A DNA stretch of 40,925 nucleotides, taken from positions 1 through 40,925 of IMG/VR virus record IMGVR_UViG_2671180437_000016; one strand, written 5' to 3'. Positions 11,959 through 32,807 of the stretch are shown here, one piece after another. This DNA is from a virus (taxonomy: Duplodnaviria > Heunggongvirae > Uroviricota > Caudoviricetes). The position numbers were made by a program, and so were the translations under genes. Position 1 is the stretch's first letter, and every line of letters starts with the position of its first letter. The notes beneath the pieces are model-generated. The model worked only from the letters and a program-made list of their open reading frames with translations. It was not told where the DNA came from and searched no databases.

Positions 11959-12289
11959 ATCAGCAGCAGAGCGCAAAGCCGCTCAGAGAGCCAGACAAGC
12001 TGCATCTGGTGTGCGTAAGATGGAGATTGTGCTTGATGCTCAGGAAATTGAAATGCTAGAGCGTAACTGTGCCACGCGTCGCCCCGGGCGTGCGCCTTAC
12101 GAATTTGGTGAGTATATAGCGTCACTGATCCGCCAGGATGATGCACGCGTGCGCGGGCGTATAAAATCGATCAGCAGAAAACGTTGCGGTAAGTGCGGCG
12201 AGAGAGTTCCAGTTAATTCATGCCCGTGCAATGGTGACTCGCAATGCTGGGTGACTAAAGGCTGGCATGAAACGAAATTAATAGTGTGA
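11951..12289 (+). CDS. Basic Cys-rich small protein, candidate late-gene regulator
   Basis: 112 aa; '[17 protein letters not shown]' zinc-ribbon-like; last gene before terminator and packaging genes; function inferred from position only. Confidence 0.5.
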
Positions 12290-12298
12290 CATGTCACG
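12285..12298. promoter_or_regulatory. 14-bp near-palindrome TGTGACATGTCACG (copy 1)
   Basis: Core GTGACATGTCAC (12286-12297) is a perfect 12-bp palindrome overlapping the stop codon of 11951..12289; recurs at 32512-32525 and, with one change, at 15361-15374. Confidence 0.5.
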
Positions 12299-12338
12299 AG
12301 TAGATTATGCATGATGAATTTGATGTGTTTTGAATACT

Positions 12339-12364
12339 GCCGCCAACTATGGCGGCTTTATTTT
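12339..12364 (+). terminator. Rho-independent terminator upstream of terminase small subunit
   Basis: Stem GCCGCC/GGCGGC, loop AACTAT, followed by TTTATTTT. Confidence 0.6.
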
Positions 12365-12407
12365 GCATGGTACTATTACCACAACGGTAACTATTACCAC
12401 GGTGGTT

Positions 12408-13004
12408 ATGATGCCTGCTGAACCTAAAACCTATAAACGCAAATCAACGCAATTTAAGCCACTAACAGCAATGCAGGAGGCTTATTGCCAGTCATACATC
12501 AAAACGCCTGAAAACCAGACTCAGGCAGCGATTAACGCAGGATTCTCCCCAAATACAGCGGCAGTTAAAGCCAGTGTAATGATGCGCGATGAACGTATTC
12601 AAAAACGGATTGCCGAGTTGATGGAGGAGCGCAACAAACGAATGCGCGTCAGTGCTGATTACGTTCTCATGCGCCTGGTGGAGATCGACCAGATGGACGT
12701 GATCGACATCCTCAACGACGATGGGAGCCTTAAGCCAATCCGCGAGTGGCCGAAAATCTGGCGCACTACGCTTAGCGGCTTTGATCTGTCATCGACCATC
12801 ATGAACATGAACGAGGATTCGATAGAGACAATCCTCAAAAAAATTAAATGGCCTGACAAGGTGAAGAACCTCGAACTGATTGGTAAGCACGTCGACGTCA
12901 ACGCATTCAAAGAACGCTTGGATGTTAATGTGAATGTGACAATTGCTGATCGCATAGCAGCAGCCAGGAAGCGACTCAAAGAACGTCAGGATGGCAATCA
13001 GTGA
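12408..13004 (+). CDS. Terminase small subunit
   Basis: Start at MMPAEPK (ATG 12408, GGTGG SD); the track ORF start at 12330 would read through the terminator hairpin; directly precedes and overlaps large terminase. Confidence 0.6.
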   Translation: MMPAEPKTYKRKSTQFKPLTAMQEAYCQSYIKTPENQTQAAINAGFSPNTAAVKASVMMRDERIQKRIAELMEERNKRMRVSADYVLMRLVEIDQMDVIDILNDDGSLKPIREWPKIWRTTLSGFDLSSTIMNMNEDSIETILKKIKWPDKVKNLELIGKHVDVNAFKERLDVNVNVTIADRIAAARKRLKERQDGNQ

Positions 13005-14476
13005 CAGATACAGCGTTATCTCCTGAAGAGCAGTTAATCGAGGATATTGCAGGGTTCACTCACGATCCGCTTGGCTATGCCCTCTATGCGTTCCCTTGGG
13101 GGGAAGAGGGGACTGAACTGGCACATGCTACCGGCCCACGTCAGTGGCAGGCTGATGCGTTCCGAGAGATACGTGATCACCTGCAGAATCCAGAGACGCG
13201 CTATCAGCCGCTTATGCTGGCACGCGCTTCTGGTCACGGTATTGGTAAATCCGCATTCATCTCAATGCTGATCAACTGGGGCATGTCCACTTGCGAGGAT
13301 TGTAAGGTCGTGGTGACCGCCAACACCGACAACCAGCTACGAACGAAGACCTGGCCGGAAATTATCAAGTGGTCGAACCTTGCTATCACGAAAGACTGGT
13401 TTACCTGTACCGCTACCGCGATGTACAGCAATGACCCTGGGCACGACAAGCGGTGGCGGGCTGACGCAATACCCTGGTCTGAGCACAACACTGAGGCGTT
13501 CGCCGGACTACACAACGAGCGCAAACGCATCATCGTGGTGTTTGATGAAGCGTCGAACATTGCGGATCTGGTGTGGGAAGTTGCCGAGGGGGCGCTTACG
13601 GACGAAGACACTGAGATTATCTGGGTGGCGTTCGGAAACCCGACGCGTAATACCGGACGTTTCCGCGAATGTTTCCGCAAATATAAACACCGCTGGAAAA
13701 CTGCGCAGATTGACAGCCGGACGGTGGAAGGCACTAACAAACAGCAGTTGCAGAAATGGGTTGATGACTACGGGGAAGACAGCGACTTCGTTAAAATCCG
13801 TGTGCGCGGCATATTCCCTGATGCATCTGAATTGCAGTTTATCCCTACCGGCCTTACTGACGAGGCAATGAAACGGGTGGTAACTGCTGCGCAGGTGGCA
13901 CATGCTCCGGTGATAATCGGCGTTGACCCGGCATACTCCGGCGTTGATGACGCTGTGATATACCTGCGGCAGGGGCTGCACAGTAAGGTGCTGTGGACTG
14001 GCAACAAGACCACTGACGATCTGATTATGGCGAAGCGCATCGCTGACTTTGAAGACCAGTATCAGGCTGACGCGGTATTCATCGACTTCGGTTACGGAAC
14101 CGGTTTGAAGTCAATCGGTGATGGCTGGGGACGTACATGGCAACTTGTTCCGTTCGGTGGCGCGTCTACTGACCCGCAGATGCTCAACAAGCGTGGGGAG
14201 ATGTTCAACTCATGTAAGACATGGCTGAGGCTGGGCGGTATGCTGGATGACCAGGAAACAGCGGACGACCTGTCGACGGCAGAGTACAAAGTTCGCGTGG
14301 ACGGTAAAATCGTTATCGAACCGAAGGAAGATATCAAAGAACGACTTGGGCGTTCGCCGGGGAAAGGCGATGCGCTATTGCTGACGTTTGCTTTCCCTGT
14401 GTCGAAGCGCCTGCGAATTCCCGGTCAGCAGAACCAGCAAGGCAAGGCCATCACAGATTACGACCCGTTTGCGTGA
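13001..14476 (+). CDS. Terminase large subunit
   Basis: 491 aa; Walker-A-like 'ASGHGIGKS', nuclease-domain 'VDPAYSGVDDAVIY'; GTG start overlapping terS stop. Confidence 0.85.
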   Translation: MTDTALSPEEQLIEDIAGFTHDPLGYALYAFPWGEEGTELAHATGPRQWQADAFREIRDHLQNPETRYQPLMLARASGHGIGKSAFISMLINWGMSTCEDCKVVVTANTDNQLRTKTWPEIIKWSNLAITKDWFTCTATAMYSNDPGHDKRWRADAIPWSEHNTEAFAGLHNERKRIIVVFDEASNIADLVWEVAEGALTDEDTEIIWVAFGNPTRNTGRFRECFRKYKHRWKTAQIDSRTVEGTNKQQLQKWVDDYGEDSDFVKIRVRGIFPDASELQFIPTGLTDEAMKRVVTAAQVAHAPVIIGVDPAYSGVDDAVIYLRQGLHSKVLWTGNKTTDDLIMAKRIADFEDQYQADAVFIDFGYGTGLKSIGDGWGRTWQLVPFGGASTDPQMLNKRGEMFNSCKTWLRLGGMLDDQETADDLSTAEYKVRVDGKIVIEPKEDIKERLGRSPGKGDALLLTFAFPVSKRLRIPGQQNQQGKAITDYDPFA

Positions 14477-14477
14477 T

Positions 14478-15218
14478 TTATTGCTTATTTTTCACGGCTT
14501 CAGCAATCATTCTCTCAGCCTGTGATGTATATGTTTTTCGCAAGGGTTCATGGCCCATATGCAATACGATACTTTCCTTTTCTTTTTCCTTTAATTCTTG
14601 TATGAGATTATTTATTTTGGCCTCCCTATCTTCAAGCATTCTGGCGGACTTTTCTGCCTCAATCTTTAACGCTGCAGCCACTGATTGCATGTTTTCCAGC
14701 TTCTTATTCAATTCCAAAACCTTATCGGAGAGCCTATCTCTTTCCGACGTTAGCTCACCCATCCTGGCCTGTGACTCCGTAATTCTTTCCTTCATAGCCT
14801 GTATGTCTTTTTCGGCGCCAGTCTTAACTTTGTCGTATGTCACATCGTGCTTTGCCTTCAGGCGCTGCAGGCGTGTGGCGCGATGAATGCGCTTGGCCTT
14901 CCGGTGGTTCTCTATCGAATCGTAATTATCAAGAGGTTTGGCTTGCCACTTTGAAATCACGTTGTTGATCCAGGGCATGCCGCCGCACAGGATTATTGCT
15001 GAAACACATGGGAATGCTAATACCGTTTTCCAACTGCTATTGCTGGAAATGTAGGTGATCTTGTCGATGATGCTGGAGTCGCTGAGGAGTAAGTATAAAA
15101 TCGACTTCCAGTTAAAGGCGCACCATGACAGTGCGAACGCTCCAAACACTGGATTTCTGACCCTTTGCGAAGCGGTATTAACGGTTGAAGATAGGTATTC
15201 TTTAAGTGATTCAAGCAT
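14478..15218 (-). CDS. Moron: predicted membrane-anchored coiled-coil protein of unknown function
   Basis: 246 aa on opposite strand inside structural region; visibly AT-rich; two hydrophobic segments ('VFGAFALSWCAFNW', 'VLAFPCVSAIILCGG') then long charged coiled-coil-like tail; own operator site upstream. Confidence 0.6.
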   Translation of the reverse strand: MLESLKEYLSSTVNTASQRVRNPVFGAFALSWCAFNWKSILYLLLSDSSIIDKITYISSNSSWKTVLAFPCVSAIILCGGMPWINNVISKWQAKPLDNYDSIENHRKAKRIHRATRLQRLKAKHDVTYDKVKTGAEKDIQAMKERITESQARMGELTSERDRLSDKVLELNKKLENMQSVAAALKIEAEKSARMLEDREAKINNLIQELKEKEKESIVLHMGHEPLRKTYTSQAERMIAEAVKNKQ

Positions 15219-15248
15219 GTCCAGGCCCTTTTAGGTTTTTTTCTGATT

Positions 15249-15263
15249 CTACCTTTAAGGTAA
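15249..15263. promoter_or_regulatory. Operator-like palindrome CTACC-TTTAA-GGTAA upstream of moron
   Basis: One-mismatch family member 31-45 nt upstream of moron start codon. Confidence 0.5.
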
Positions 15264-15360
15264 TCTTCGGTCATTATGAAAAACGTATCCCTATGAGGGG
15301 ATAATGTCGTTGATATCCTCTGATGAGGATAAAACAAAGCCAGCTTATCGGCTGGCTGTT

Positions 15361-15374
15361 TGTGACGTGTCACG
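15361..15374. promoter_or_regulatory. 14-bp near-palindrome TGTGACGTGTCACG (copy 2, one substitution)
   Basis: Differs from 12285-12298 by a single central A to G change. Confidence 0.45.
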
Positions 15375-15416
15375 ACATTAAAATCCATCGAATTCGTATT
15401 TCATGATTCACACCTT

Positions 15417-15440
15417 AAAAAAATGCCCGGTGAACCGGGC
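15417..15440 (-). terminator. Rho-independent terminator downstream of tRNA
   Basis: Stem GCCCGG/CCGGGC, loop TGAA, A-run on plus strand (U-run on minus); a second hairpin AGCCAGC/GCTGGCT at 15331-15364 has A- and T-rich flanks. Confidence 0.55.
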
Positions 15441-15603
15441 GAACTGGAAGCAATGAGTTATGCCTTCCGTGGCTGTACGGGTTTACAGCATGAAGTCATC
15501 GCAATGGCGTCCTGCTGTAAAAAGGGCGGTGATAGTCCTTCAATGGAAACCATCACCGCCAAGCACCTGGAACTTCTGGCATCACGGTCCTTAGGCGTGA
15601 TTC

Positions 15604-15680
15604 TGGCGTGGCATGCAGGATTCGAACCTGCGACCAACCGCTTAGAAGGCGGTTGCTCTGTCCAACTGAGCTAATGCCAC
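15604..15680 (-). tRNA. tRNA-Arg (anticodon UCU)
   Basis: 77-nt cloverleaf read on minus strand: acceptor GTGGCAT/ATGCCAC, D-arm GCTC...GAGC, anticodon stem ACCGC/GCGGT with loop CTTCTAA (anticodon TCT), T-arm GCAGG-TTCGAAT-CCTGC, discriminator G + CCA. Confidence 0.85.
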
Positions 15681-16002
15681 AACGCTGAGAGCACTTAGCC
15701 TGTTAAGGCGCCACACTTTGTCGCGGCTCCATAAATGCTCTCATCGTTGTACCCTCGTCTCTTCCGAGGCGTCACACCGAATCGCCGGGATGGTGTATCC
15801 CCGTGCGCGGAATAAAACCGCTCGACTTGCACATTCCGGCTACCTGGTTCGTTTGCCCGAGCAAGGGAGGGTGCCCCTTAAACGTATCCAGACCGCTATC
15901 GGCGCATGTGCCATACGCCGTACTGCTCAAAATAAAAGCTCACTCCACCTGTTTAATTTAACGACAAGCCAGTCAGGTTAATAACCGGAATGAACTCTTT
16001 GC

Positions 16003-16017
16003 TTACCTGAAAGGTAA
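16003..16017. promoter_or_regulatory. Operator-like palindrome TTACC-TGAAA-GGTAA upstream of portal operon
   Basis: Perfect site; followed at 16060 by CATATGTGGTTAAA motif. Confidence 0.55.
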
Positions 16018-16107
16018 TAATTTGTGCGTTAAATGTCAACTATCTACGATAAATAAATCATATGTGGTTAAATTGGTGATAATTTAATTGCGTACGGAGT
16101 CATTGAT

Positions 16108-16314
16108 ATGTGCATGGGTAGCTCACCATCAGTGCCTGCAACACCAGAAGTTCAGGCAGCACCACAGGAGCAGGATGCCGCCGTTGTTGATGCCCGCGAC
16201 GAAGAAACACGTCGCCGTCGCGCTGCTGCTGGTCGTAGTTCTACGCTGCTTACCGGTTCTCAGGGCGACACATCAACCGCTAATACCAGCGGTAAAACGC
16301 TGCTTGGTCAGTAA
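16108..16314 (+). CDS. Small hypothetical protein (68 aa) upstream of portal
   Basis: Translation initiation region ACGGAGTCATTGATATG is near-identical to that of the portal gene; Q/A/T-rich product. Confidence 0.4.
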   Translation: MCMGSSPSVPATPEVQAAPQEQDAAVVDARDEETRRRRAAAGRSSTLLTGSQGDTSTANTSGKTLLGQ

Positions 16315-16328
16315 CCGGAGTCATTGAA

Positions 16329-18008
16329 ATGGCGGAAACAACTAAAGAGCGATTGAACAAACAGTTCGCACAACTTGAAAGCGAGCGTCAGTCGTTCGAG
16401 CCGCACTGGCGCGAGTTGAGTGATTACATCAACCCGCGTGGTTCCCGCTTTCTGACTTCTGAGGCCAACCGTAACGATCGGCGCAATACACGCATTATTG
16501 ATTCGACCGGGACTATGGCGGCGCGCACTCTCGCCAGCGGCATGATGTCAGGCATCACAAGCCCCGCGCGTCCGTGGTTTCGCCTGGCTACGCCAGATCC
16601 TGAAATGATGGATTATGGCCCTGTTAAGTTGTGGCTTGAGGCGGTGCAGAACCGCATGAACGATATGTTCAATAAGTCGAATCTCTATCAGTCGCTGCCG
16701 CAGTTATACGGAAGCCTCGGCACATACAGCACCGGTGCAATGGCGGTACTGGAGGATGATGAGGACATCATTCGCACAATGCCATTCCCGATAGGCAGTT
16801 ACTACCTGGCTAACTCACCTCGTGGCAGTGTTGACACCTGTTTTCGCAAGTTCTCTATGACTGTTCGTCAGCTTGTTCAGGAGTTCGGGCTAAATAACGT
16901 CAGCGAATCCGTAAAAAGCATGTGGGAAAGCGGCACCTACGAGAAGTGGATTGACGTGATGCATTCGGTTTACCCGAACATTGACCGCGATACATCGAAG
17001 CTGGATAGCAAGAACAAGCCATTCAAATCGGTTTATTACGAGGTTGGTGGCGATAACGACAAGTTGTTGCGTGAGTCCGGATTCGATGAGTTTCCAATTA
17101 TGGCTCCGCGCTGGGAAGTTAACGGCGAAGATGTTTATGGATCATCATGCCCGGGTATGCTGGCGCTTGGACCTGTTAAGGCATTGCAGCTTCTCCAGAA
17201 GCGCAAGTCGCAGTTGATTGATAAAGCCACCAATCCGCCGATGGTTGCTCCGACTTCCCTCAAGAATCAGCGCGCCTCCCTTCTTCCTGGCGACATCACG
17301 TATATCGATCAGATTACTGGTCAGGATGGCTTCAGGCCTGCTTATCTGGTTAACCCCAGTACAGCAGATTTGGTGGCAGACATTCAGGACACTCGTCAAA
17401 TCATTAACAGCGCCTACTTTGTCGATCTGTTCATGATGTTGCAGAACATCAATACCCGCTCGATGCCTGTTGAAGCGGTGATCGAAATGAAAGAAGAAAA
17501 ACTTCTGATGTTGGGGCCGGTTCTGGAGCGTCTGAACGACGAATGTCTTAATCCTCTCATTGACCGCGCTTTCTCGATGATGGTGCGTAAAAACATGCTG
17601 CCGCCACCGCCTGACACGATGGAAGGCATGCCCCTGAAGGTCGAATACATTTCCGTCATGGCTCAGGCGCAGAAGTCTATCGGCCTGTCCAGTCTGGCGT
17701 CCACGGTTAACTTCATTGGTCAACTTGCGCAAGCGAAACCAGAAGCTCTCGACAAACTCAACGTTGATCAGGCGATCGATGCATTCGCTGATATGTCCGG
17801 AGTGTCTCCAACCGTCATTGTTCCGCAGGAACAGGTTGAGCAGGCTCGCCAGCAACGGGCACAGCAGCAACAGCAGCAACAAATGATGGCGATGGGGATG
17901 GCGGCGGCACAGGGGGCCAAGACGCTAAGCGAAGCTAAAACTTCGGATCCGAGTGTTTTGTCAGCTATGGCGAATGCAGTTAGTGGTCAGGGTGGGCAAT
18001 CACAATGA
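16329..18008 (+). CDS. Portal (head-to-tail connector) protein
   Basis: 559 aa, acidic, downstream of terminase and upstream of scaffold and capsid; size and position as in T7-like/epsilon15-like podoviruses. Confidence 0.8.
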   Translation: MAETTKERLNKQFAQLESERQSFEPHWRELSDYINPRGSRFLTSEANRNDRRNTRIIDSTGTMAARTLASGMMSGITSPARPWFRLATPDPEMMDYGPVKLWLEAVQNRMNDMFNKSNLYQSLPQLYGSLGTYSTGAMAVLEDDEDIIRTMPFPIGSYYLANSPRGSVDTCFRKFSMTVRQLVQEFGLNNVSESVKSMWESGTYEKWIDVMHSVYPNIDRDTSKLDSKNKPFKSVYYEVGGDNDKLLRESGFDEFPIMAPRWEVNGEDVYGSSCPGMLALGPVKALQLLQKRKSQLIDKATNPPMVAPTSLKNQRASLLPGDITYIDQITGQDGFRPAYLVNPSTADLVADIQDTRQIINSAYFVDLFMMLQNINTRSMPVEAVIEMKEEKLLMLGPVLERLNDECLNPLIDRAFSMMVRKNMLPPPPDTMEGMPLKVEYISVMAQAQKSIGLSSLASTVNFIGQLAQAKPEALDKLNVDQAIDAFADMSGVSPTVIVPQEQVEQARQQRAQQQQQQQMMAMGMAAAQGAKTLSEAKTSDPSVLSAMANAVSGQGGQSQ

Positions 18009-18301
18009 CAGATTACGAAGACGATCAACTGAAAGAAGAAAACGCCCGTAAGCAACGTGACATGGCACAGCGTGAAATTGATGACATTCGCTTTGTCATG
18101 AGCTGTGAACAGGGGCGTCGGGTTGTCTGGTCGGTACTGGAGAAAGGCCGTGTGTTTTCCGCTATCTCGCCGATGGACGCTATGGCAATGGCATTTAATG
18201 AGGGGCAACGCAATCTGGCGCTGGAACTGTTTCAGCGCGTTATGGCGCATTGCCCTGAACAGTATTTGAAGATGGCCAAAGAGGCCAGTGAACAGGAGTG
18301 A
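18005..18301 (+). CDS. Hypothetical head-module protein
   Basis: 98 aa, overlaps portal stop and scaffold start. Confidence 0.5.
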   Translation: MTDYEDDQLKEENARKQRDMAQREIDDIRFVMSCEQGRRVVWSVLEKGRVFSAISPMDAMAMAFNEGQRNLALELFQRVMAHCPEQYLKMAKEASEQE

Positions 18302-18999
18302 TCATGAATTTATTTGAGCGTTTGCTGTATAGCCGTCTTTGCAATGAGCAACCAGTCGATGGTGGAGCAGCTCCGGCTGCGTCAGAACCGTCAGCGCCTG
18401 CAGGTGATAACCCTGCTCCAGTTGGTGATCCATCACAACAGGAAGGTGATAAGCCACAACCTGTTGCTGATGGCGATAAACCTGCTGCTGACAAAAAGCC
18501 TGAAAACGATAAGCAGGATGAAAAAAAGGACGGCGATAAACCAGAGGGTGCGCCTGAGAAGTACGAGTTTCAGGCTGCCGAAGGCGTAGAGCTGGATACA
18601 GAAGCGTTGAAGGAATTCGAGCCGGTGGCGCGAGAACTAAACCTGACCAACGAGCAAGCGCAAAAGCTGGTTGATGTTTATCCGAAGATTCTGGCAGGTG
18701 TTCAGCAGCGCCAGGCAGAAGCCTGGCAGAAAACAACCGAGCAGTGGGCTGCTGATGTAAAAGCTGACAAAGAAATCGGTGGCGACAAGTTGATTTCTAA
18801 CCTTAGCGCCGCGCAGCGTGCGCTTGACCAGTTCGGGACACCTGAGCTCAAAGAATATCTGAACACCACCGGACTGGGTAATCACCCTGATCTGGTCAAG
18901 ACGTTCGTGAAAATCGGAAAGGCGATGTCTGAAGATGGCATGGTCACCGGTGGTAATGAAGGCCAGCGTAGTGCGGCCGAAGTGCTCTATGGCAAATAA
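18298..18999 (+). CDS. Scaffolding protein (putative)
   Basis: 233 aa, highly acidic, low-complexity Pro/Ala/Asp/Lys-rich N-terminal half; immediately upstream of major capsid gene. Confidence 0.6.
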   Translation: MIMNLFERLLYSRLCNEQPVDGGAAPAASEPSAPAGDNPAPVGDPSQQEGDKPQPVADGDKPAADKKPENDKQDEKKDGDKPEGAPEKYEFQAAEGVELDTEALKEFEPVARELNLTNEQAQKLVDVYPKILAGVQQRQAEAWQKTTEQWAADVKADKEIGGDKLISNLSAAQRALDQFGTPELKEYLNTTGLGNHPDLVKTFVKIGKAMSEDGMVTGGNEGQRSAAEVLYGK

Positions 19000-19013
19000 G
19001 AGAGGAAATGACA

Positions 19014-20000
19014 ATGGCTGTTAAAGGCTTAACTGCGCTAACGCTGGCTGACTGGGGTAAGCGCGTCGATCCAAACGGGAAAGTCGATAAGATTATCGAG
19101 CTTCTCGGTCAAACTAACCCGATCCTTCAGGATATGCCTTTTGTCGAAGGGAACCTTCCTACCGGACACCGAACCACCATTCGTTCTGGTTTACCTTCAG
19201 CTACCTGGCGTTTGCTGAACTATGGCGTACAGCCAAGCAAATCAACCACAGTGCAGGTAACCGATTCCGTTGGCATGCTGGAAACCTATGCTGAAGTCGA
19301 TAAGTCACTGGCTGATCTGAACGGCAATACCGCCGAATTCCGCCTGTCTGAAGACCGCGCATTTATTGAAGCGATGAATCAGCAGATGGCGCAGACGCTG
19401 TTTTATGGTGATTCCAGCGTTAACCCTCAGCAGTTTATGGGACTGTCCTCCCGCTATTCCAGCCTGTCTGCGGGTAATGCTCAGAACATCATTGATGCTG
19501 GTGGCACGGGTACAGATAACACCTCTATCTGGTTAGTGGTGTGGGGCGAAAACACCGTGCATGGCATCTTCCCGAAAGGGCAGAAGGCTGGCATCCAGAT
19601 GGAAGATAAAGGCCAGGTGACACTGGAAGATGCGAATGGCGGCAAGTACGAAGGCTACCGTACCCATTACAAATGGGACAACGGGCTTGCTCTGCGTGAC
19701 TGGCGTTATGTTGTTCGCATTGCAAACATCGATGTCAGCAATCTTTCAGAACCTTCCTCTGCCGCAAATATTGCGAAGTTGATGGTTAAAGCACTGCATC
19801 GCATTCCAAACCGTGGCATGGGTCGCCCGGTGTTCTACATGAACCGCACTGTAGGCCAGGCTCTTGATCTGCAATCTCTGGAGAAAACATCTCTGGCGAT
19901 CAGCGTAAAAGAGACAGAAGGCGAGTGGTGGACGTCATTCCGTGGTGTACCAATCCGTGAAACTGATGCGCTTCTGGAAACAGAAGCCCGCGTGGTGTAA
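19014..20000 (+). CDS. Major capsid protein
   Basis: About 328 aa; strong SD AGAGGAA 6 nt upstream of ATG 19014; position after scaffold; stem-loop GTGGGTC/GACCCAC at 20016-20035 follows. Confidence 0.8.
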   Translation: MAVKGLTALTLADWGKRVDPNGKVDKIIELLGQTNPILQDMPFVEGNLPTGHRTTIRSGLPSATWRLLNYGVQPSKSTTVQVTDSVGMLETYAEVDKSLADLNGNTAEFRLSEDRAFIEAMNQQMAQTLFYGDSSVNPQQFMGLSSRYSSLSAGNAQNIIDAGGTGTDNTSIWLVVWGENTVHGIFPKGQKAGIQMEDKGQVTLEDANGGKYEGYRTHYKWDNGLALRDWRYVVRIANIDVSNLSEPSSAANIAKLMVKALHRIPNRGMGRPVFYMNRTVGQALDLQSLEKTSLAISVKETEGEWWTSFRGVPIRETDALLETEARVV

Positions 20001-20051
20001 CGCCTGTTATTAACCTGTGGGTCGTAACAGACCCACTAATGGAGAAAGAAG

Positions 20052-20489: not shown

Positions 20490-20499
20490 GGTGATATTG

Positions 20500-20835: not shown

Positions 20836-20852
20836 GCCTCGCGGATCAGACA

Positions 20853-20873
20853 AGGGGCTTCGGCCCCTTTATT
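20853..20873 (+). terminator. Intra-operon stem-loop/terminator
   Basis: Stem AGGGGC/GCCCCT, loop TTCG, followed by TTATT. Confidence 0.45.
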
Positions 20874-20885
20874 GCAGGAGTGTAT

Positions 20886-24285: not shown

Positions 24286-24749
24286 TGATCGATGTTCAAA
24301 TTATTCCCGCTACCGAAGAGCATCTTCAGATGATTTTGCCGGATGTTCGTCAGGCTGATATTGACGAACTGTATGCGGTATCGCTGATGACTACCGAAGA
24401 TGCGCTGCGCGTTGGTCTTCGCACTGCGACTATGGCCTGGTCAGGGTTCGCGAACGGAGAACTGGTAACCATGTTTGGTGTATCTCCGGCGTCAATGATC
24501 GGTGGCAATGGTACGCCCTGGCTGGTAGGAACCAGCCGTATTGAAAAATATCAGAAGACATTTCTGCGCCACTGCCGCCCTGTATTGCAGCAGATGCTGG
24601 CAGTTTATCCGCGCCTGGAAAACTACGTCGACGAGCGAAACCATGTTGCCAAAGCATGGCTGCACTGGCTTGGATTCAGGCTTGAAGAAGCCGCGCCTTA
24701 TGGTGCTCTTGGTCTTAATTTCCACAGATTTCACATGGAGAGAAAATAA
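24285..24749 (+). CDS. Internal virion protein (small), putative
   Basis: 154 aa, ATGA-coupled to upstream gene; position equivalent to T7 gp13. Confidence 0.4.
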   Translation: MIDVQIIPATEEHLQMILPDVRQADIDELYAVSLMTTEDALRVGLRTATMAWSGFANGELVTMFGVSPASMIGGNGTPWLVGTSRIEKYQKTFLRHCRPVLQQMLAVYPRLENYVDERNHVAKAWLHWLGFRLEEAAPYGALGLNFHRFHMERK

Positions 24750-25294
24750 TGTGCGATCCGGTTATTGCTGGTGGCGCAATGCTCGCCATGAGTGGCATTC
24801 AGGCATACACCCAGTACCAACAGGGAAAGTATGCCTCGAAGGTTGCAGAAGCGAACGCAGATATAGCCACTGCTCAGGCAAATGATGCAATAAACAGAGG
24901 TAACGCTGAAGCTGAGCAACGGCGCAGAGAGACCCGACAGCGGCTTGGTACACAGGCGGCGACAATGGGGGCGACCGGCGCTGATTTATCTACCGGTAAC
25001 GCGCTGGATATATTTGGCGACACTGCCCAGTTTGGCGCCCTTGATTCGCTGACGACGGTGAATAACGCGCAACGCGAGGCTTACGGTTATCAGGTTCAGG
25101 CTGCCAACTATAAAGCAGAAGCCAGTTCAGCCCGTAAACAGGGGAATGTGGGAGCAGCAACAACATTGCTCACCGCGCCTCTGAGGGCATACGGTGCGTA
25201 CCAGATGTTTGGTGGGACGTGGAGTCCGTTTACTCAAAGCACTCCTGCGCCAATCGGGGCAGCAGCAGGAACCAGATTACCCGGAGGATTATAA
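24749..25294 (+). CDS. Internal virion protein, putative
   Basis: 181 aa, Ala/Gly/Gln-rich; position equivalent to T7 gp14. Confidence 0.4.
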   Translation: MCDPVIAGGAMLAMSGIQAYTQYQQGKYASKVAEANADIATAQANDAINRGNAEAEQRRRETRQRLGTQAATMGATGADLSTGNALDIFGDTAQFGALDSLTTVNNAQREAYGYQVQAANYKAEASSARKQGNVGAATTLLTAPLRAYGAYQMFGGTWSPFTQSTPAPIGAAAGTRLPGGL

Positions 25295-27807
25295 TGCCAG
25301 TCGTACCAACAGTATCCGGACGTCAGGTTGAGAGCCGTGGAGTTCAGTCAGCAGGCTTGCAGACGTTTTCTCAGCCAGGTATTGGTGATGCTTTTGTTCG
25401 GGCAGGGGCAGAGGCTATTGATGTTTTTGGTCAGGCAAAACAGCGTGCCAATATCGCTCTGGCTCAGGAGGCATCTCTTAACCTCAGTCAGATAAGCAGT
25501 GATCTGCTGAATAATCCTGAAACAGGATTGCTTAACCTGAAAGGGAAAAATGCTATTGGAAAAGGCCATGAGTATACGCAGCAGTTTGATGCTCAGGTCG
25601 AACAACTGGCTATGTCGCTGCCGGATGAACAGGCCCGTAATGCTTTCATGCAGCAGGCGCAGCAGCAGCGCATTCAGTTCACTACGCAGGCCGGGCGGCA
25701 CGAGATAGGGCAAATAAATGCCTACGAAGAAGGCCAGTTTCAGGCTACGCTGCTGAACAATGGTAAAAATGCCGCAGCATTGTATGGCGACAACGCCGCA
25801 TACGTATTGGCTAATAAGCAAACTTTCCAGCAAATTGAGGATTACGGCATTGCACATGGCTGGAGTGACGAGCAAATCCAGGCCAAAAAAATCGAGTTTA
25901 AAGAAGCAACAGCAAAAGCAACTGCTCAAAATGCTATTGGAGCAAACTATCTTCAGGTAAGACAGCAAAACGGCGAGTTAAGCGATACTGCTGCTGGTTC
26001 TCGCCGTGCTGTAGCAGATAGTGGCTCTTCCGATCGTACCCGCGGTATACGCAACAATAACCCCGGCAATCTTGAATACAGCAAAACTAATCCGTGGGTT
26101 GGGCAGACTGGTGATGATGGTCGCTTTGCCAAATTCGAAACCCCTGAACACGGTATTCGTGCATTAGGGCGGAACCTGATGTCGTATCAGCGGCAGGGTA
26201 TTGATACCGTCAGCGAGATAATTAATCGCTGGGCACCGCCTACTGATAAAAATGACACTATGTCGTATATCAAAGCAGTGTGCGAACAACTTGGCGTTTC
26301 TGCTGATGAGCCTCTCGATGCATCAAATCCTGATACCCTGAAGGCGCTTTGTGCAGCCATTATCCATCATGAAAACGGTAGCCAGCCATACAGTGATCAG
26401 CAGTTAACTGCAGGTGTTAGTGCTGCGCTGGGGCTTTCTCAGCTACCGACAAAAAATAAACGTTATACCGGTGTAGCCTGGTTCGATGCTTTAAGTGAAT
26501 CAGATCAGGCCAGCGTGTTGCGACAGACTGATGCACTAGCCAGACAACAGCAGGCTGAATATAAAACGATGCTCGACAGCCGGGTTCGCGATGCGACGGC
26601 TGCGTATATGCGTGGCATTGAATTTCCTAACCCACCTGGTGAGGATGATTTTATTGCAGCTTATGGAGTCAGAGAAGGAAACCTGCGATATACCGAGTTT
26701 AAGAATACGCAGATCGCCGGACAGTATATAGGCTCTTTCCGCAACATGCCGACAAGCAGCATTACAGCATATGTTGAGCAATTACGCCCGGATACTGGTG
26801 ATACAGGGGAGGGGTATGCGGCACGCGCAGCTCTTTATGACAACGTTGTTTCGGCTGCAAATCAGGTGATAAAGCAGCGGCAGTCGGATCCTGTGCAGTT
26901 CTCTCTTGCCTCCGGACAGGCAAAGCCTATCGACATGAGCAATAAGGATAACTTTGGACAGAGCGTTGCCTTGCGTGCCGCTCAGGTCAGTGACCTTGCT
27001 AAGTCATATGGCACTCCACTGACGTTCTTTTCCAAAGACGAGGCCAATCAGATCGGTGTTTTCTTTCGTGATGCTCCAGTTTCCCAACAGGCAGCATATC
27101 TCGATACCATCAGGCAGAGCACTGGTGGTGGGCAGGTGTATATGTCAGCACTACAGCAGATCAGTGCCAACGCTCCATCTGCTGCCGTTGCCGGGATACT
27201 GATGGACAAGCCTGGTGGTATTTTGGCAGAAAAAAACTGGTTTAATCCGGATGTTTCCGTGTCTCCTGAAACCGCTGCGCAGACAATTCTTACTGGCGCG
27301 GCGGCTCGTAAAGGTACTGATGATGCGAAAGGTATTCCGATGCCTAAAGATGCTGATCTTCGCCTTGAGTTTTCTGACATGGTGAAGGATGCATTTGCTG
27401 GTGATGCTCAGGGGGCATCAATGGCATACGAGATCGCAAAGGACTATTACGCTGGTGTGATGGCGAAAAAAGGCGTGATATCAGGCGAAATTGACACTGA
27501 TATCTGGAAGCAGGCTGTTAACGTAGCTACAGGTGGCGTGCATGACTATAACGGAATGGGGAATGTCCTTTTGCCGTGGGGAATGTCTGCAGAGCAATTC
27601 GATAAGCAGGTTGATCAGGCTTGGAATGAACAAGTGGTCGGCACCGGGATAAAAACACCGCCTGGTCAGTATGGTTTGCAAAGTTACGGCGATAGTCAGT
27701 ACCTGGTGAAACTTGGTACTGGTTATCTGCTGAAAGATGATGGTTCTCCTGTTGTTCTTGATCTGACACAGAAGCGTCAGAGATTCTCCGGAGATATTCC
27801 GCAATGA
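25294..27807 (+). CDS. Internal virion/ejection protein with conserved 'RNNNPGNL' module
   Basis: Start at MPVVPTVSGRQ (SD CCGGAGGA); about 837 aa; conserved-looking block 'TRGIRNNNPGNLEYSKTNPWVGQTGDDGRFAKFETPEHGIRALGRNLMSY'. Confidence 0.55.
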   Translation: MPVVPTVSGRQVESRGVQSAGLQTFSQPGIGDAFVRAGAEAIDVFGQAKQRANIALAQEASLNLSQISSDLLNNPETGLLNLKGKNAIGKGHEYTQQFDAQVEQLAMSLPDEQARNAFMQQAQQQRIQFTTQAGRHEIGQINAYEEGQFQATLLNNGKNAAALYGDNAAYVLANKQTFQQIEDYGIAHGWSDEQIQAKKIEFKEATAKATAQNAIGANYLQVRQQNGELSDTAAGSRRAVADSGSSDRTRGIRNNNPGNLEYSKTNPWVGQTGDDGRFAKFETPEHGIRALGRNLMSYQRQGIDTVSEIINRWAPPTDKNDTMSYIKAVCEQLGVSADEPLDASNPDTLKALCAAIIHHENGSQPYSDQQLTAGVSAALGLSQLPTKNKRYTGVAWFDALSESDQASVLRQTDALARQQQAEYKTMLDSRVRDATAAYMRGIEFPNPPGEDDFIAAYGVREGNLRYTEFKNTQIAGQYIGSFRNMPTSSITAYVEQLRPDTGDTGEGYAARAALYDNVVSAANQVIKQRQSDPVQFSLASGQAKPIDMSNKDNFGQSVALRAAQVSDLAKSYGTPLTFFSKDEANQIGVFFRDAPVSQQAAYLDTIRQSTGGGQVYMSALQQISANAPSAAVAGILMDKPGGILAEKNWFNPDVSVSPETAAQTILTGAAARKGTDDAKGIPMPKDADLRLEFSDMVKDAFAGDAQGASMAYEIAKDYYAGVMAKKGVISGEIDTDIWKQAVNVATGGVHDYNGMGNVLLPWGMSAEQFDKQVDQAWNEQVVGTGIKTPPGQYGLQSYGDSQYLVKLGTGYLLKDDGSPVVLDLTQKRQRFSGDIPQ

Positions 27808-29606
27808 GTTACTTTGGCCTTAATCCAGTAAATCAGAATCAGCAACTTGACGAAGCAGCATCAAATCCAGCGGGCTTTAACAGCGATGTTGGTTTTTTCG
27901 ACAATGCTGTAGGAGCGGCATTGTCTGGTTTGTACTCCGGGCTGGTGGCAAAGCCAGATCAGTTGCTATGGGCAGGGATGGATAAAATCGTATCCCCGAT
28001 TGCTCAGTTTATTAACGAAAACACCTCGCTCAATGATACTTCAGTTTCATACATTGCCGAGCAGAGAAAACTAGCAGAGCAGCAGGTTAAGCGGCTGACG
28101 CCTGATGCCGCGACAACCGGAACCGCCGGGCAGGTTCTTTATGGGTTGTTCGATATGGGCGGGCAGGCTGTTGTCGGTACAACGCTCGGTGGTCCTGTCG
28201 GAGGTGCAGCGGCGGTAACTTCGCTACAGGGTTTTTCTGAGTTTGAACGGCTGACAGCACAGGGTGTTGATTTCAGGACGGCGCAGGAAGCGGGATTAGT
28301 GCAGGGCATTACTGCTGGTGCCGGAACACTGATCCCTATGAGCCTCGGGTTACGTGCTGGTGGTGCGCTGGCGGAAGGTGTGGCGGCTCAGCTTGCGCGG
28401 ACGGGTGAGAGTTCAGTGCGACGCGCCGCAGCAACAGCAGTACGTGCAACGCCAGATATTGCCTATGCCGCAGGTACAAATATTGCTTTCGGTATGGCAC
28501 AGCGTGGGCTTACTGCAAAAACACTTCGTGATGGTGGCTATAGCGAAATGGCTAACCAGTATGATGTGTTGGATCGACAGGCAATTGCTATTGATGCTGT
28601 TCTTGGGGTGGCGTTTAGTGGTGTCGGCAGATTTATTAACTCTCGCGGAGAGTCTACAAACGCACCAAATTTTTCACCAGTTGATATCGATGCTGCACTG
28701 GCGGCGAATGCCGCTCATCATGCTGAAATTGATATTGCGCCCGGCGTGCCGATCAACGTGCTTTCGCGTAATTCGCACATTCAGGCTCTGCGAAAAGCCA
28801 TGTCTGATGTTAGCCAGGGGAGACCTGTAGACGTTGCCAGCATTGTTGAGTCTGCATCTTTCAGTGAAATTCCTGGTCGCAAGAGTCTGCTGTCTCAGGC
28901 AGTTAATGAGGCTCTGTCATCTGTAGATGATGGAGTAACGGCGCGCGCTATAGAAAATCGGTTGCTTGAAGAACAGGCCGCGCAGCTTTTGCCGCGTGGC
29001 GATAGACAGGTTTACCAGTCTGAAATCGCTAATAGCCAACGAATTATTGAAAATCTCACTGAACAGCGCGCACAAATTCTTGCAGAAGAGCCAACCGGTA
29101 GCGGTAAGGCTTTATCTCGTGCTCGATCAGATAAACAGGCCAGACTTCGCGATATTGACCAACGAATCCGGCAGGCACAAGAACGCCTGGAATTTTCTCG
29201 TAACGCGTTGGCACCGCATGAATCTGGCGGTCAGTTTTTTGAAGCTCGAGCAGAACTGGCACGGCGACTGCAGGTAGAAAGTGAACTTAATGCTCAGGCT
29301 GTTTCATTCTATAAAACAGCAGAGGTCAGGACGCCAGACGAAGTAGCTCCTTTTGAGCCTGATAAAATATTGCAACAGGCAGAACAAAAAATGATGGCGG
29401 ATCAGGCAGGAGATATTGATCTGCGCATAGCTGAAGACTCGCTGCTTGAATCACCTGACATGATAATCACCGTGCTGGATGATGATGGTAATCCACAATC
29501 GCGCAGCGCGCGTGAAGTACTGGATGAAGCGAACAGGGAAAGTGAGCAGGCAATACAGGATTCCAGCCTGTTTGATGTCGCTGTGGCGTGTTTCTTGAGA
29601 GGTTAA
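27804..29606 (+). CDS. Internal virion/ejection protein
   Basis: 600 aa, Ala/Gly-rich N-half and coiled-coil C-half, coupled to neighbours. Confidence 0.5.
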   Translation: MSYFGLNPVNQNQQLDEAASNPAGFNSDVGFFDNAVGAALSGLYSGLVAKPDQLLWAGMDKIVSPIAQFINENTSLNDTSVSYIAEQRKLAEQQVKRLTPDAATTGTAGQVLYGLFDMGGQAVVGTTLGGPVGGAAAVTSLQGFSEFERLTAQGVDFRTAQEAGLVQGITAGAGTLIPMSLGLRAGGALAEGVAAQLARTGESSVRRAAATAVRATPDIAYAAGTNIAFGMAQRGLTAKTLRDGGYSEMANQYDVLDRQAIAIDAVLGVAFSGVGRFINSRGESTNAPNFSPVDIDAALAANAAHHAEIDIAPGVPINVLSRNSHIQALRKAMSDVSQGRPVDVASIVESASFSEIPGRKSLLSQAVNEALSSVDDGVTARAIENRLLEEQAAQLLPRGDRQVYQSEIANSQRIIENLTEQRAQILAEEPTGSGKALSRARSDKQARLRDIDQRIRQAQERLEFSRNALAPHESGGQFFEARAELARRLQVESELNAQAVSFYKTAEVRTPDEVAPFEPDKILQQAEQKMMADQAGDIDLRIAEDSLLESPDMIITVLDDDGNPQSRSAREVLDEANRESEQAIQDSSLFDVAVACFLRG

Positions 29607-29611
29607 ATTAA

Positions 29612-32086
29612 ATGAGACAGGAATGTATACAAGCGGTCCAGCAGGCGGCGCAGCGCACGTTAACGGCGCGAGAAATACAGAACATTGAAGACCGCATTTA
29701 TCGAAATATGCGCTCTATTGCTCGTGATGACCCGATGTCGTGGAGACAACTTTCCGAATCAGAGCGGCTATATCGTGCAGCACAATTGGCATCTGAAGAA
29801 TTACAGCGAGAAGCGGCATTAAATAAACGTCGTGTGGCCCTCACTATAGCCGCACGTCAGAGATTGGATAAATTTATCAATAGCTATCAAGGGGCTGATG
29901 GGAAACTTGGCGCTCTTAACCGTACTATTGCTTTTAATGCAGACGGTAAATCGAATTTCCTCTCTGTTGAGTCCAGAACAAAAGCCACTCGTGATTATGC
30001 ATTGAGTCAATTGCAAGAGGCATTTGAAGCAGTTGATCCTCGCTTTTTTGGCCTGTTTGAAGATGAAGCTGGCGTGCGTGACCTGGTATATGAAATGCGA
30101 GGGCAAAATACTGGCAATGCTAAAGCAAGAAAAGGTGCTAAGGCGTGGAGAGAAGTGACAGATCTACTGCGCCGCCGGTTTAATGATGCTGGTGGGGACA
30201 TTGGCTATCTCGAAAACTGGGGGATCCCTCAACATCATTCTATGGAAAAGGTTGGGGCGGTATCAAAGGATAAGTGGGTTAGCGATGTTATAGGTAAGCT
30301 GGATCGCAAATATTATATCCGAGCCGATGGACAACTGATGAACGATGCCGAGTTGTCTGCATTTCTTGGAGAGGCTTATAACACGATCGCTACTGGTGGG
30401 CTGAATAAGCTTACTGATACCGGAATGCGAATTTCCGGCGCACGTGCTAACCGTGGTAATGCATCACGACAGATACATTTCAAAGATGCAGATTCCTATC
30501 TGCAATATCAGCAACTTTATGGCGATCGCTCTCTATGGGAAATCATGGTCGGTCACCTGGAAGGTATCAGTAAAGATATTGCACTGGTGGAAACATATGG
30601 CCCAAACCCCGATCATGTTTTCCGCTCTCTTCTTGATCAGGTGAAGGCAGAAACGGCAACAGCTAACCCGAGCAAAACCGGTAAAGTCGAGCGGCTGGCG
30701 AACAACACAGAGAATCTGTACAACTTTATTTCCGGAAAGACACAGCCTGTAGCGAATCCGCACATCGCGCGATGGTCTGACAATATCCGCAACTGGCTGG
30801 TTGCCAGCAGACTCGGATCCGCGTTGCTGTCATCGTTCTCTGATCTTGGAACCATGTATCTGTCTGCGAAGGTTACCAACCTTCCAATGAACCAGTTATT
30901 TCGCAACCAGCTTGAAGCTATGGACCCAACGAACCGTACTGAGCTTGCGCGGGCGCGCCGCGCTGGCCTGGCGATGGAATCTCTACTTGGCAGCGTTAAC
31001 CGCTGGGCGATGGATAATATGGGGCCGTCTGTGTCTCGTTGGGCGGCAACGGCGGTAATGCGTGCCAGTGGGCTTACAGCATGGTCAGATGCGCACAAGC
31101 GCGCCTATGGCGTAACCATGATGGGAAGCCTGGGAGAAGTAGTGTCACGGACACCAGACCTTCGTAGCCTCGATGACTCTGATTTTCGTATCCTGAAAAG
31201 TAAAGGGATTACTGACACAGACTGGAGCGTATGGAAGCTGGCGCAACAGGAGGACTGGGGGAACGGTAATAATACGATGCTGACACCGGAAAGCATTATG
31301 CGTATCCCTGATTCAGCAGTTAAACATCTTGGTGAGCCTGAACGCGTGAAATTTGAGGCAATGCGTAAACTGCTCGGTGCCGTAACTGAAGAAGTTGATA
31401 TGGCTGTTATTACACCGGGCGCACGTGAGCAGATGTTCGTAGGGTCTGGTCTTCAGCGTGGAACATGGAAAGGTGAATTAACGAGAAGTGTTTTCCTGTT
31501 TAAATCGTTCCCTATCTCGGTTGTTATGCGTCACTGGTCACGCGCTATGGGTATGCCGTCTGCTGGTGGGCGTGCAGCATATATAGCAACGTTTTTAGCA
31601 AGCACAACCATGCTTGGTGCTCTTTCCATGCAGATTACTGATCTTATTAATGGGAGAAATCCAAAGGAAATGACCGGTGACCACATGGTTAAATTCTGGA
31701 TAAATGCATTTTTAAAAGGTGGCGGGGCTGGGTTGTACGGTGATTTTCTTTTCTCTGACCACACTAGGTACGGGAGCGGCGCGCTGGCGTCGATGCTTGG
31801 CCCGGTAGCTGGTCTGGTTGATGACGTAGTGAAGATAGCTCAGGGCATACCGCTAAATGCTGTGGAAGGGAAGAGTGAGCAGACTGGTGGTGATCTGGTT
31901 AAGCTGGGGAAGGGGCTGATGCCAGGTGCGAATCTCTGGTACTTGAAGGCGGCTCTCGATCATATGATCTTTAACCAGATGCAGGAGTATTTTTCACCAG
32001 GCTATTTGCGTAAAATGGAGCAACGTTCGAAGAAAGAGTTTAACCAGACATACTGGTGGCGACCTCAGGATGTTACTCCGCAATAA
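29612..32086 (+). CDS. Internal virion/ejection protein (large)
   Basis: 824 aa; last gene of contiguous virion block. Confidence 0.5.
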   Translation: MRQECIQAVQQAAQRTLTAREIQNIEDRIYRNMRSIARDDPMSWRQLSESERLYRAAQLASEELQREAALNKRRVALTIAARQRLDKFINSYQGADGKLGALNRTIAFNADGKSNFLSVESRTKATRDYALSQLQEAFEAVDPRFFGLFEDEAGVRDLVYEMRGQNTGNAKARKGAKAWREVTDLLRRRFNDAGGDIGYLENWGIPQHHSMEKVGAVSKDKWVSDVIGKLDRKYYIRADGQLMNDAELSAFLGEAYNTIATGGLNKLTDTGMRISGARANRGNASRQIHFKDADSYLQYQQLYGDRSLWEIMVGHLEGISKDIALVETYGPNPDHVFRSLLDQVKAETATANPSKTGKVERLANNTENLYNFISGKTQPVANPHIARWSDNIRNWLVASRLGSALLSSFSDLGTMYLSAKVTNLPMNQLFRNQLEAMDPTNRTELARARRAGLAMESLLGSVNRWAMDNMGPSVSRWAATAVMRASGLTAWSDAHKRAYGVTMMGSLGEVVSRTPDLRSLDDSDFRILKSKGITDTDWSVWKLAQQEDWGNGNNTMLTPESIMRIPDSAVKHLGEPERVKFEAMRKLLGAVTEEVDMAVITPGAREQMFVGSGLQRGTWKGELTRSVFLFKSFPISVVMRHWSRAMGMPSAGGRAAYIATFLASTTMLGALSMQITDLINGRNPKEMTGDHMVKFWINAFLKGGGAGLYGDFLFSDHTRYGSGALASMLGPVAGLVDDVVKIAQGIPLNAVEGKSEQTGGDLVKLGKGLMPGANLWYLKAALDHMIFNQMQEYFSPGYLRKMEQRSKKEFNQTYWWRPQDVTPQ

Positions 32087-32095
32087 GGAACAACA

Positions 32096-32509
32096 ATGAA
32101 GGAATTATTGCTGTTATCGGTATTTTTGATATCCGCTTGCTCGACATCCTATGATGTTTATGACGGTGTTGATAAGGCATATTGCGACAAAGTTAAAATG
32201 GATTTTTCTCTTGCCAAGACGGCGAAGGATAGTTGTATTGATCACTACGTCAAGACTTATACCAAGCCAGCATCATCGGCATCTGATATTGCTGAAGGTG
32301 CTGTGTTTGAGTGTAACAAGGTGATATCCATCGCAGCGAGTTCTTCATACGATGCTGCTGTATGTGCAATGGCTGAAAGAAACGGCATGTCAGTGCAAAA
32401 AGTTAATAGCATGATAAACAGTAATGACGAAGCCAAAATAAGAACTGATATCAGCTCGGTGAAAAAAGATGCCATGAACAGAGTTGTAAAATATCAGTCA
32501 TCTTTATAA
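32096..32509 (+). CDS. Predicted lipoprotein (cargo; candidate superinfection-exclusion factor)
   Basis: 137 aa; signal peptide with lipobox 'LISAC'; SD AAGGAA; immediately after ejection-protein genes; followed by palindrome and terminator. Confidence 0.6.
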   Translation: MKELLLLSVFLISACSTSYDVYDGVDKAYCDKVKMDFSLAKTAKDSCIDHYVKTYTKPASSASDIAEGAVFECNKVISIAASSSYDAAVCAMAERNGMSVQKVNSMINSNDEAKIRTDISSVKKDAMNRVVKYQSSL

Positions 32510-32511
32510 GT

Positions 32512-32525
32512 CGTGACATGTCACA
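32512..32525. promoter_or_regulatory. 14-bp near-palindrome CGTGACATGTCACA (copy 3, inverted relative to copy 1)
   Basis: Exact reverse complement of 12285-12298; core 32513-32524. Confidence 0.5.
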
Positions 32526-32802: not shown

Positions 32803-32807
32803 TTCTA

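Follow-up and report, generated by a model that had tools for sequence, protein, structure and literature searches.

The phage genome held in the IMG/VR record IMGVR_UViG_2671180437_000016 (40,925 nucleotides, analysed at its full length and called the window below) raises the question of what a 14-bp near-palindrome is doing at three borders between its gene modules, and which protein recognizes it there. The first copy, TGTGACATGTCACG at 12285-12298 on the plus strand, has the TGA stop codon (12287-12289) of the gene at 11951-12289 inside its left half-site and precedes terS and terL, i.e. it lies where the regulatory genes meet the packaging genes. The second, TGTGACGTGTCACG, with one substitution, is found at 15361-15374 between terL and a convergent minus-strand block carrying a moron and a tRNA gene, and the third, CGTGACATGTCACA, is a reverse-strand copy of TGTGACATGTCACG at 32512-32525 on the minus strand, placed between the end of the virion operon and a minus-strand cargo block. 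All these copies and their surroundings had been described in an original prediction made from the letters of the sequence, together with a terminator hairpin within about 50 bp of each, and all could be verified, the hairpins lying 41 nt away, 3 nt away and directly abutting, respectively. The best explanation we can offer, to which we give about an even chance, is that the motif is the cognate operator of the protein family of gp49—the product of the gene 11951-12289—and that it probably serves the control of terminators.

That the copies are far above chance, as had been claimed, follows from the core GTGACNNGTCAC, present three times in the window versus 0.02 times on average in 100 shuffles that preserved the dinucleotides, with no shuffle reaching three; this count and the spacing counts given below rule out a chance origin of the three sites. 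A fourth copy with one mismatch, TGTGCCATGTCACG, missed in the original prediction, is located at 18056-18069 on the minus strand inside the open reading frame (ORF) 18005-18301. The close relative phiV10 has an identical copy, but none of the matches of epsilon15 with 0-1 mismatches corresponds to it; owing to its coding location and the lack of a counterpart in epsilon15, the copy was rejected as a member of the system and is probably due to chance.

Based on BLAST, the window belongs to the epsilon15/phiV10 group (genus Uetakevirus) and represents a temperate podovirus prophage, its nearest matches being prophages within E. coli chromosomes; the gene order agrees with that of phiV10 and epsilon15. 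All six complete Uetakevirus genomes examined contain three syntenic copies of the motif, i.e. at the gp49 stop codon, between terL and the convergent moron, and at the end of the virion operon. The conserved genes of phiV10, epsilon15, SPC32H, Tyrion and BUCT554 are ~80% identical to those of the window and their intergenic DNA is unrelated; in each of these phages GTGACNNGTCAC is present three times at the syntenic places, the copies being reported as perfect, and BUCT554 has one additional copy within a coding region, probably by chance. It should be noted that the ends of the phiV10 record split its site 1 (...GTGTGA / CATGTTACG...), which is invisible in the linear record because the cut falls inside it, and that this copy has a C-to-T change (GTTAC). 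In alignments of the site regions, the motif is invariant and the flanks are otherwise unalignable, the hairpins adjoining sites 2 and 3 being invariant or co-varying; at site 3, the stem is invariant in the six genomes and the loop variable, and the gene upstream differs by phage. In the GenBank record of epsilon15, which is rich in annotated regulatory sites, none of the three positions carries a feature.

The architecture of the element emerged from 653 kb of loci chosen independently of the motif, in which half-sites separated by two bases (N2) were found 68 times versus 0.62 expected, the spacings 0, 1 and 3-8 occurring 0-2 times each. Throughout the 66 distinct contexts, the ten half-site bases never vary and no compensatory changes are seen; the central dinucleotide is AT in 47 contexts and AC, AG, CA, GC or CC in the others, and the base outside the half-site is a pyrimidine in 130 of the 132 half-sites. 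With invariant half-sites, a free centre and an outer pyrimidine, the element can therefore be written as YGTGAC-NN-GTCACR. To judge from these comparisons, the site is under strong purifying selection, and its invariance without compensation, its symmetric flanks and its free centre indicate the site of a dimeric DNA-binding protein rather than an RNA hairpin.

The product of 11951-12289 had been named in the original prediction as a candidate binder, and comparative genomics strongly supports the candidate by the stop-codon overlap, by its being the only shared gene and by a modelled ribbon-helix-helix fold. An exact-match scan of IMG/VR revealed the 14-mer directly after diverged gp49-like genes regardless of what comes next, be it a terminator with terS, an immediately adjoining gene, or a LexA-box promoter. 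In a species-level scan by gp49 alignment, with one genome per species (40 loci, down to 48% identity, spanning Citrobacter, Klebsiella, Pantoea, Erwinia, Serratia, Rahnella, Yersinia and others), GTGACNNGTCAC is placed on or right beside the stop codon of gp49 in 34 loci, the usual register being exact (NTG-TGA-C, with the stop codon as half-site bases 2-4). Epsilon15, SPC32H and Tyrion share the register of site 1 as well. At the stop codon, gene 46 of N15 (33% identity) reads GCG-TGA-CTGGTCAC and the homologue from a Yersinia P2-like phage (41-42% identity) TTG-TGA-CGCGTCAC; the site lies 2 nt past the stop of ZF40 gp22, and the homologue from the Vibrio phage K303 (29-32% identity) has no site at its stop, the nearest one lying 226 nt downstream of the gene. 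There are three sites per genome in both N15 and ZF40, and three in the 23.7 kb of K303 examined. The N15 sites (GTGAC-NN-GTCAC) are at 28550, 33237 and 39269, one of them inside repA, and those of ZF40 at 5125, 7622 and 14944, two of them in or near gp08 and a cII-like gene.

Gp49 is the sole ORF of the window for which N15, ZF40, the Yersinia phage and K303 all have a homologue, and members of its family occur in Enterobacterales, Vibrio and Aeromonas. As a rule, gp49 is the final or almost the final gene of an early operon, and it is followed by terS-terL, by an ant-like gene behind a LexA box, by xis-int, by ninB and then a Q-like gene (ZF40), or by early-operon ORFs (P2-like phage). A fixed physical linkage of the site to the 3' end of gp49 is thus shown across these very different phages.

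Concerning the protein, gp49 (112 residues) is a member of PHROG 536, labelled 'transcriptional regulator', and nothing significant was found for it in Pfam and NCBIfam; an exhaustive homologue search yielded 151 cluster representatives, mostly of 105-130 residues. The AlphaFold2 model based on a deep alignment has a predicted local distance difference test (pLDDT) score of 91.9, an earlier model from a shallow alignment (pLDDT 52) having been unusable. It consists of a helix at residues 5-19, an extended segment, helices at 30-42 and 52-74, a Cys-rich segment at 79-99 and a helix at 100-108, which would correspond to an N-terminal basic helix, a ribbon-helix-helix domain—a fold to which the model is assigned by fold search—and a C-terminal Cys4 ribbon. 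The search of BFVD returned only a fragment from the gp49 family itself, and comparison with the Q families in Pfam and PHROGs gave no match. In SPN1S/SPC32H, the N-terminal basic helix of gp49 is replaced by unrelated sequence, the region 38340-38632 of SPC32H being annotated as two ORFs.

The second part of the favoured explanation, i.e. terminator control, comes from what stands next to the sites. Site 1 is followed, after 41 nt and before terS, by the intrinsic terminator t1 (GCCGCCaactatGGCGGC then TTTATTTTG; 12339-12364 on the plus strand, hairpin 12339-12356), which is kept in related phages at a variable distance of 19-56 nt. On the minus strand, an intrinsic terminator (AGCCAGCcgataaGCTGGCT then TTGTTTTAT; 15330-15357, hairpin 15357-15338) lies 3 nt 3' of site 2, and the intrinsic terminator t3 (AGGCCGCaaaaGCGGCCT then TGTTTTTAA; 32525-32550 on the plus strand, hairpin 32525-32542) abuts site 3. 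All three sites of the window are therefore 5' of a hairpin on the strand that bears the T-run, at a distance of 0-41 nt, and 32 of the 68 sites mentioned above lie within 90 nt 5' of an intrinsic terminator, only nine lying 3' of one. The succession of gp49, site, 19-56-nt spacer, strong terminator and co-oriented genes recurs before terS, ninB and DUF1367, and the same gp49-site-terminator layout is present in the P2-like phage before further early-operon ORFs.

We propose that a gp49 dimer would bind the YGTGAC-NN-GTCACR palindrome and that the three Uetakevirus operators would mark—this being the weaker step—the ends of successive rightward units, i.e. the early-right, terS-terL and virion units. 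Since the operators are situated at unit ends, each just 5' of an intrinsic terminator, DNA-bound gp49 would be expected to act on RNA polymerase there, and it probably controls read-through at unit-end terminators. Read-through is the favoured sign, which would follow the logic of lambda Q (regulator gene, DNA site, terminator, downstream genes); the alternative sign would be a reinforced termination insulating the units.

The remaining transcription signals of the window are of a different kind. The motif ATTACC-N5-GGTAAT, annotated as repressor sites in the epsilon15 record, was counted 18 times in the window (5210-38207) versus 1.2 expected, before most transcription units (for example at 5272, 8315, 12375, 12393, 16002, 34626, 35746 and 37727); being a different motif, it also eliminates the site under study as an operator of the prophage repressor. 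These repressor operators precede terS, the portal unit, the tailspike and the lysis genes, and because they precede most units, the prophage repressor seems to control many of them directly. Two sites resembling them, at 12375-12409, cover the ribosome-binding site and start of terS and are distinct in motif from site 1. At four co-oriented units (8396, 16088/16108, 35866 and 37839), CATATGTGGTTT stands between operator and start codon (8362-8373, 16059-16070, 35791-35802 and 37775-37786), ~30-45 nt after the former and 20-65 nt before the latter, and could be part of a promoter or leader; its count in the whole window, nine versus 4.0 expected, is barely above chance. No CATATGTGGTTT was found upstream of terS and a promoter scan found no promoter after t1. 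With no promoter recognized and a strong terminator ahead, terS-terL probably relies on read-through of t1 from the early-right operon, and gp49 is the obvious candidate to permit it, because its product would bind DNA just before t1; an N- or Q-like gene was not found in epsilon15-like phages.

Several points weigh against this explanation. Gp49 is a putative binder of the site, assigned to it on genetic grounds, and the SPN1S/SPC32H proteins lack the basic helix, yet all three perfect sites are kept in these phages. The likeness of the C-terminal half of gp49 to the zinc finger of TraR/DksA, in which a helix is followed by CxxC-N17-CxxC and which binds the secondary channel of RNA polymerase, is marginal: TraR and YbiI were top in a profile search of the PDB for residues 48-109 (E ~0.03, with the fourth Cys unaligned), and the likeness was not recovered in fold searches; it is treated as a lead and no more. 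ZF40 and N15 encode Q-like antiterminators of their own, so that gp49 cannot replace Q in general. No terminator is found near many of the sites, e.g. those of N15, ZF40, Vibrio and Pantoea loci with xis-int following, and the canonical terminator at site 2 is on the minus strand, where read-through would yield RNA antisense to terL. The remaining late units seem to possess repressor-controlled promoters of their own and, for this reason, antitermination is not obviously needed beyond terS-terL. Insulation, a MatP-like architecture or promoter control (e.g. of ant) may be the role instead.

Among the alternatives, the one that survives best, although we consider it unlikely, is architectural: gp49 would bridge or mark distant sites in the manner of MatP on matS, thereby folding or insulating the genome or affecting the host condensin. 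It would account for the three dispersed sites in each of the six Uetakeviruses, in N15 and ZF40 and in the 23.7 kb of K303, for the several sites without a terminator or promoter nearby, and for the spread of the gp49 family over Enterobacterales, Vibrio and Aeromonas, which we take to be roughly the MatP clade. MatP is built of a four-helix bundle, a ribbon-helix-helix domain and a C-terminal coiled coil, in contrast to the gp49 model with one N-terminal helix in place of the bundle and a Cys-rich segment in place of the coiled coil. No sequence homology to MatP was detected (MatP was not listed in the profile search of the PDB; hhalign E 0.078, probability <1%, with a MatP profile that could not be improved, since the search for MatP homologues gave near-identical E. 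coli sequences only), and the hugging of terminators by Uetakevirus sites within 0-4 nt would be left unexplained. The half-sites, on the other hand, are identical to those of the matS consensus GTGAC-RNY-GTCAC (PMC3603311; PMC6907758). The more specific version, somewhat less likely still, is that gp49 and its site would be a phage counterpart of MatP/matS, with the spacing offset by one base pair avoiding cross-talk with the host, and that it would organize or insulate the phage chromosome at unit boundaries or interfere with the host condensin or terminus.

A second alternative, for which we see only a slim chance, is that gp49 activates or represses a promoter overlapping or adjoining the site, such as a late or an antirepressor promoter. 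The sequence GTGACA is similar to a -35 hexamer, and several phages have the site 5-6 nt upstream of the -35 element of a LexA-box promoter driving an ant-like gene; in N15, the site between genes 33 and 32 is followed after ~25 nt by a TTGACG hexamer, which precedes the antirepressor operon. A precedent is provided by Arc and Mnt of P22, ribbon-helix-helix repressors of ant. At site 1, however, there is only a weak promoter-like match (9/12) beginning at 12286, from which an epsilon15-type transcript would start at the base of the terminator hairpin, i.e. inside the terminator, and a promoter at this site was thus rejected. Sites 2 and 3 have no conserved -10 element on either side, and at many sites the next start codon follows after 10-19 nt, which leaves no room for a promoter. 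Of the late-regulator site suggested in the original prediction, the candidacy of the product of 11951-12289 as the binding regulator has gained strong support, whereas the idea of a late promoter activator has found none.

Still less probable is a recombination anchor, i.e. a short conserved sequence at which phages exchange modules and morons. The search for the 14-mer in related prophages proposed at the outset revealed the motif to be conserved and to coincide with mosaic breakpoints. Sites 2 and 3 combine a constant motif and hairpin with a varying abutting gene, one flank being conserved and the other drawn from at least 8-10 unrelated cassettes; site 1 keeps its upstream gene, and the DNA that follows varies widely (terS, ant with a LexA box, xis-int, ninB). 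Near-identical terminator hairpins (AGGCCGC-NNNN-GCGGCCT) at 32525-32542 and 35389-35406, the latter with no GTGAC site beside it, flank the cargo block 32543-35388, which suggests that the block may have been inserted via recombination at the hairpin, and epsilon15-type phages encode RecT/RecE-type recombinases according to their annotation. Passive homology, however, needs neither a strict 2-bp spacing with invariant half-sites and a free centre nor conservation out to N15 and Vibrio K303, and no dedicated recombinase co-occurs with the site, only gp49. The module-boundary sequence originally suggested is therefore right as far as the coincidence with mosaic joints is concerned, with no sign of a dedicated recombinase. 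Mosaic joints are expected at any conserved unit-end element, and we read them as a consequence of such an element (~45 bp of shared sequence), not as its purpose.

It is a little more improbable again that a host protein, be it MatP or another common factor, binds the sites and that the linkage to gp49 is incidental. The hosts concerned—Escherichia, Salmonella, Pectobacterium, Yersinia and Vibrio—are all known to encode MatP, the half-sites equal those of matS, and a perfect 13-bp match to the matS consensus is present in one Vibrio phage in a gene stop-site-hairpin arrangement. That phage is K303, where GTGACACCGTCAC at 6769-6781 covers the TGA stop codon of a gene for a small membrane protein, with a hairpin after it. 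The arrangement resembles that of Uetakevirus site 3 except for the 3-bp spacer, and this one case is statistically at chance level. Against a host factor, one would hardly expect the site to overlap the gp49 stop codon in exact register over a range of 33-100% protein identity unless the two were functionally linked, the phage core is strictly 12 bp versus the 13 bp of matS (68 N2 versus one N3 site in the 653 kb), and true matS has been reported to be absent from 500 prophages and counter-selected (PMC3603311).

The weakest alternative, an RNA-level hairpin in 3' untranslated regions acting in stability, processing or terminator folding, is very improbable, since, although the motif is transcribed at unit 3' ends beside terminator hairpins and the C-to-T change at phiV10 site 1 would preserve a G-U pair, a 5-bp stem with a 2-nt loop is impossible (only one site folds into a stem, of 4 bp, and the other two pair differently), the 66 contexts show no compensatory change whereas the terminator of site 2 co-varies, the outer Y/R positions are symmetrically conserved, and some sites are in coding regions on either strand. 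A long-range RNA pairing of site 1 was discarded as well, its partner sequence being unconserved in relatives, and the three dispersed sites per genome together with the presence of the motif in the cos phage N15 argue against both a pac site and a replication origin.

As for the rest of the window, the leftward early side comprises the integrase, the leftward early genes and the repressor gene (5345-5929, minus strand). The rightward early/replication block carries near its end the NinX gene (11470-11958) and ends with gp49 on the plus strand, followed rightward by terS and terL; the moron and tRNA-Arg (15604-15680), both on the minus strand, separate terL from the plus-strand portal-to-virion operon ending at 32509. 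The cargo block on the minus strand (32543-35388) encodes a small secreted peptide, a 210-residue ORF, a Bro-N protein and a 242-residue ORF. Within it, the small ORF 32548-32708 on the minus strand has a signal-peptide-like N-terminus (MKKAFAALFVLLSLVASTQAFA) and a 3' end adjoining the terminator of site 3, and its counterpart is kept beside the hairpin in many related prophages. Beyond the block lie a 91-residue antirepressor homologue (35413-35688, minus strand), 88% identical to the antirepressor Ant of SPC32H, the tailspike gene (35866-37626) and the lysis genes. Directly upstream of the Ant-like ORF, a near-consensus LexA box, AACTGTATATTTATACAGTA, is present at 35690-35709; it is the only good LexA box of the window and is unrelated to the motif, which cannot, therefore, be identified as a LexA box.

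The literature searched contained no paper with the motif string and none likening a phage protein or site to MatP/matS, and no description of a function of epsilon15 gp49 or N15 gp46 was found there. The regulator-site pair thus has no earlier description in the literature that could be searched, and the placement of a site on the stop codon of its own gene and against terminators is unusual. A family that has so far been 'hypothetical' or a 'transcriptional regulator'—present in epsilon15, phiV10, SPN1S/SPC32H, N15, ZF40 and many prophages of Enterobacterales and Vibrio—would gain a precise DNA target and a three-site map. If read-through of terminators is true, it would explain how the terminase is expressed behind a strong terminator in epsilon15-like phages and would bring a new protein family into the DNA-site-dependent control of termination; should the likeness to matS be functional, it would be a phage analogue of a chromosome-organizing system, of which we know no earlier one. 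The site also marks the exact joints at which morons and cargo are swapped, which may be useful for prophage annotation and for engineering, such as that of phiV10-based reporter phages.

It remains to compare the pair with known systems. CRP and FNR recognize TGTGA-N6-TCACA and TTGAT-N4-ATCAA, respectively, and the TGTGA...TCACA halves of the motif do resemble those of CRP; the gap, however, is an invariant 4 bp (TGTGA-N4-TCACR) instead of the 6 bp of CRP, which the geometry of that family does not allow, so that the CRP/FNR-type host factor considered in the original prediction finds no support, the closest host site being matS with a spacer one base longer. With Arc, Mnt, CopG, TraM and the ParD/TacA antitoxins, gp49 shares the modelled fold, a short palindromic operator and the small, probably dimeric protein. 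The operators of the Arc/Mnt/CopG type overlap promoters, usually their own, whereas the gp49 site overlaps its own stop codon and is found at unit ends, with no conserved promoter elements at sites 2 and 3; gp49 differs from the known ribbon-helix-helix regulators also by the added Cys4 ribbon and by belonging to no Pfam family.

The resemblance to MatP/matS concerns both partners. MatP and the modelled gp49 are each a ribbon-helix-helix protein preceded by a basic helix, with several dispersed sites per replicon and a similar host range, and both sites are inverted repeats of GTGAC/GTCAC with a degenerate centre. The phage spacer is, however, strictly 2 bp versus 3 bp in matS, which the literature describes as 13 bp long in E. 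coli and V. cholerae and of which the window has no match even with one mismatch. The phage sites are located at the ends of transcription units and matS in the chromosome terminus, and the gp49 model has a Cys4 ribbon instead of the four-helix bundle and C-terminal coiled coil that define the MatP family (PF06303, PF17414), outside which gp49 thus falls.

Lambda Q and qut differ from the pair in that gp49 has no similarity to the Q family and its site is accompanied by no convincing promoter or sigma-dependent pause element, whereas the site of Q lies within a constitutive promoter that has a promoter-proximal pause; additional gp49 sites abut terminators directly, and gp49 co-resides with Q-like genes in ZF40 and N15. 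Their layout is nevertheless the one encountered here: a regulator gene ending the early operon, its site, a terminator, and then the packaging or late genes—in the window, the gp49 stop codon with site 1, 41 nt, t1 and terS—and in both cases the gene and its site move together as one mosaic module.

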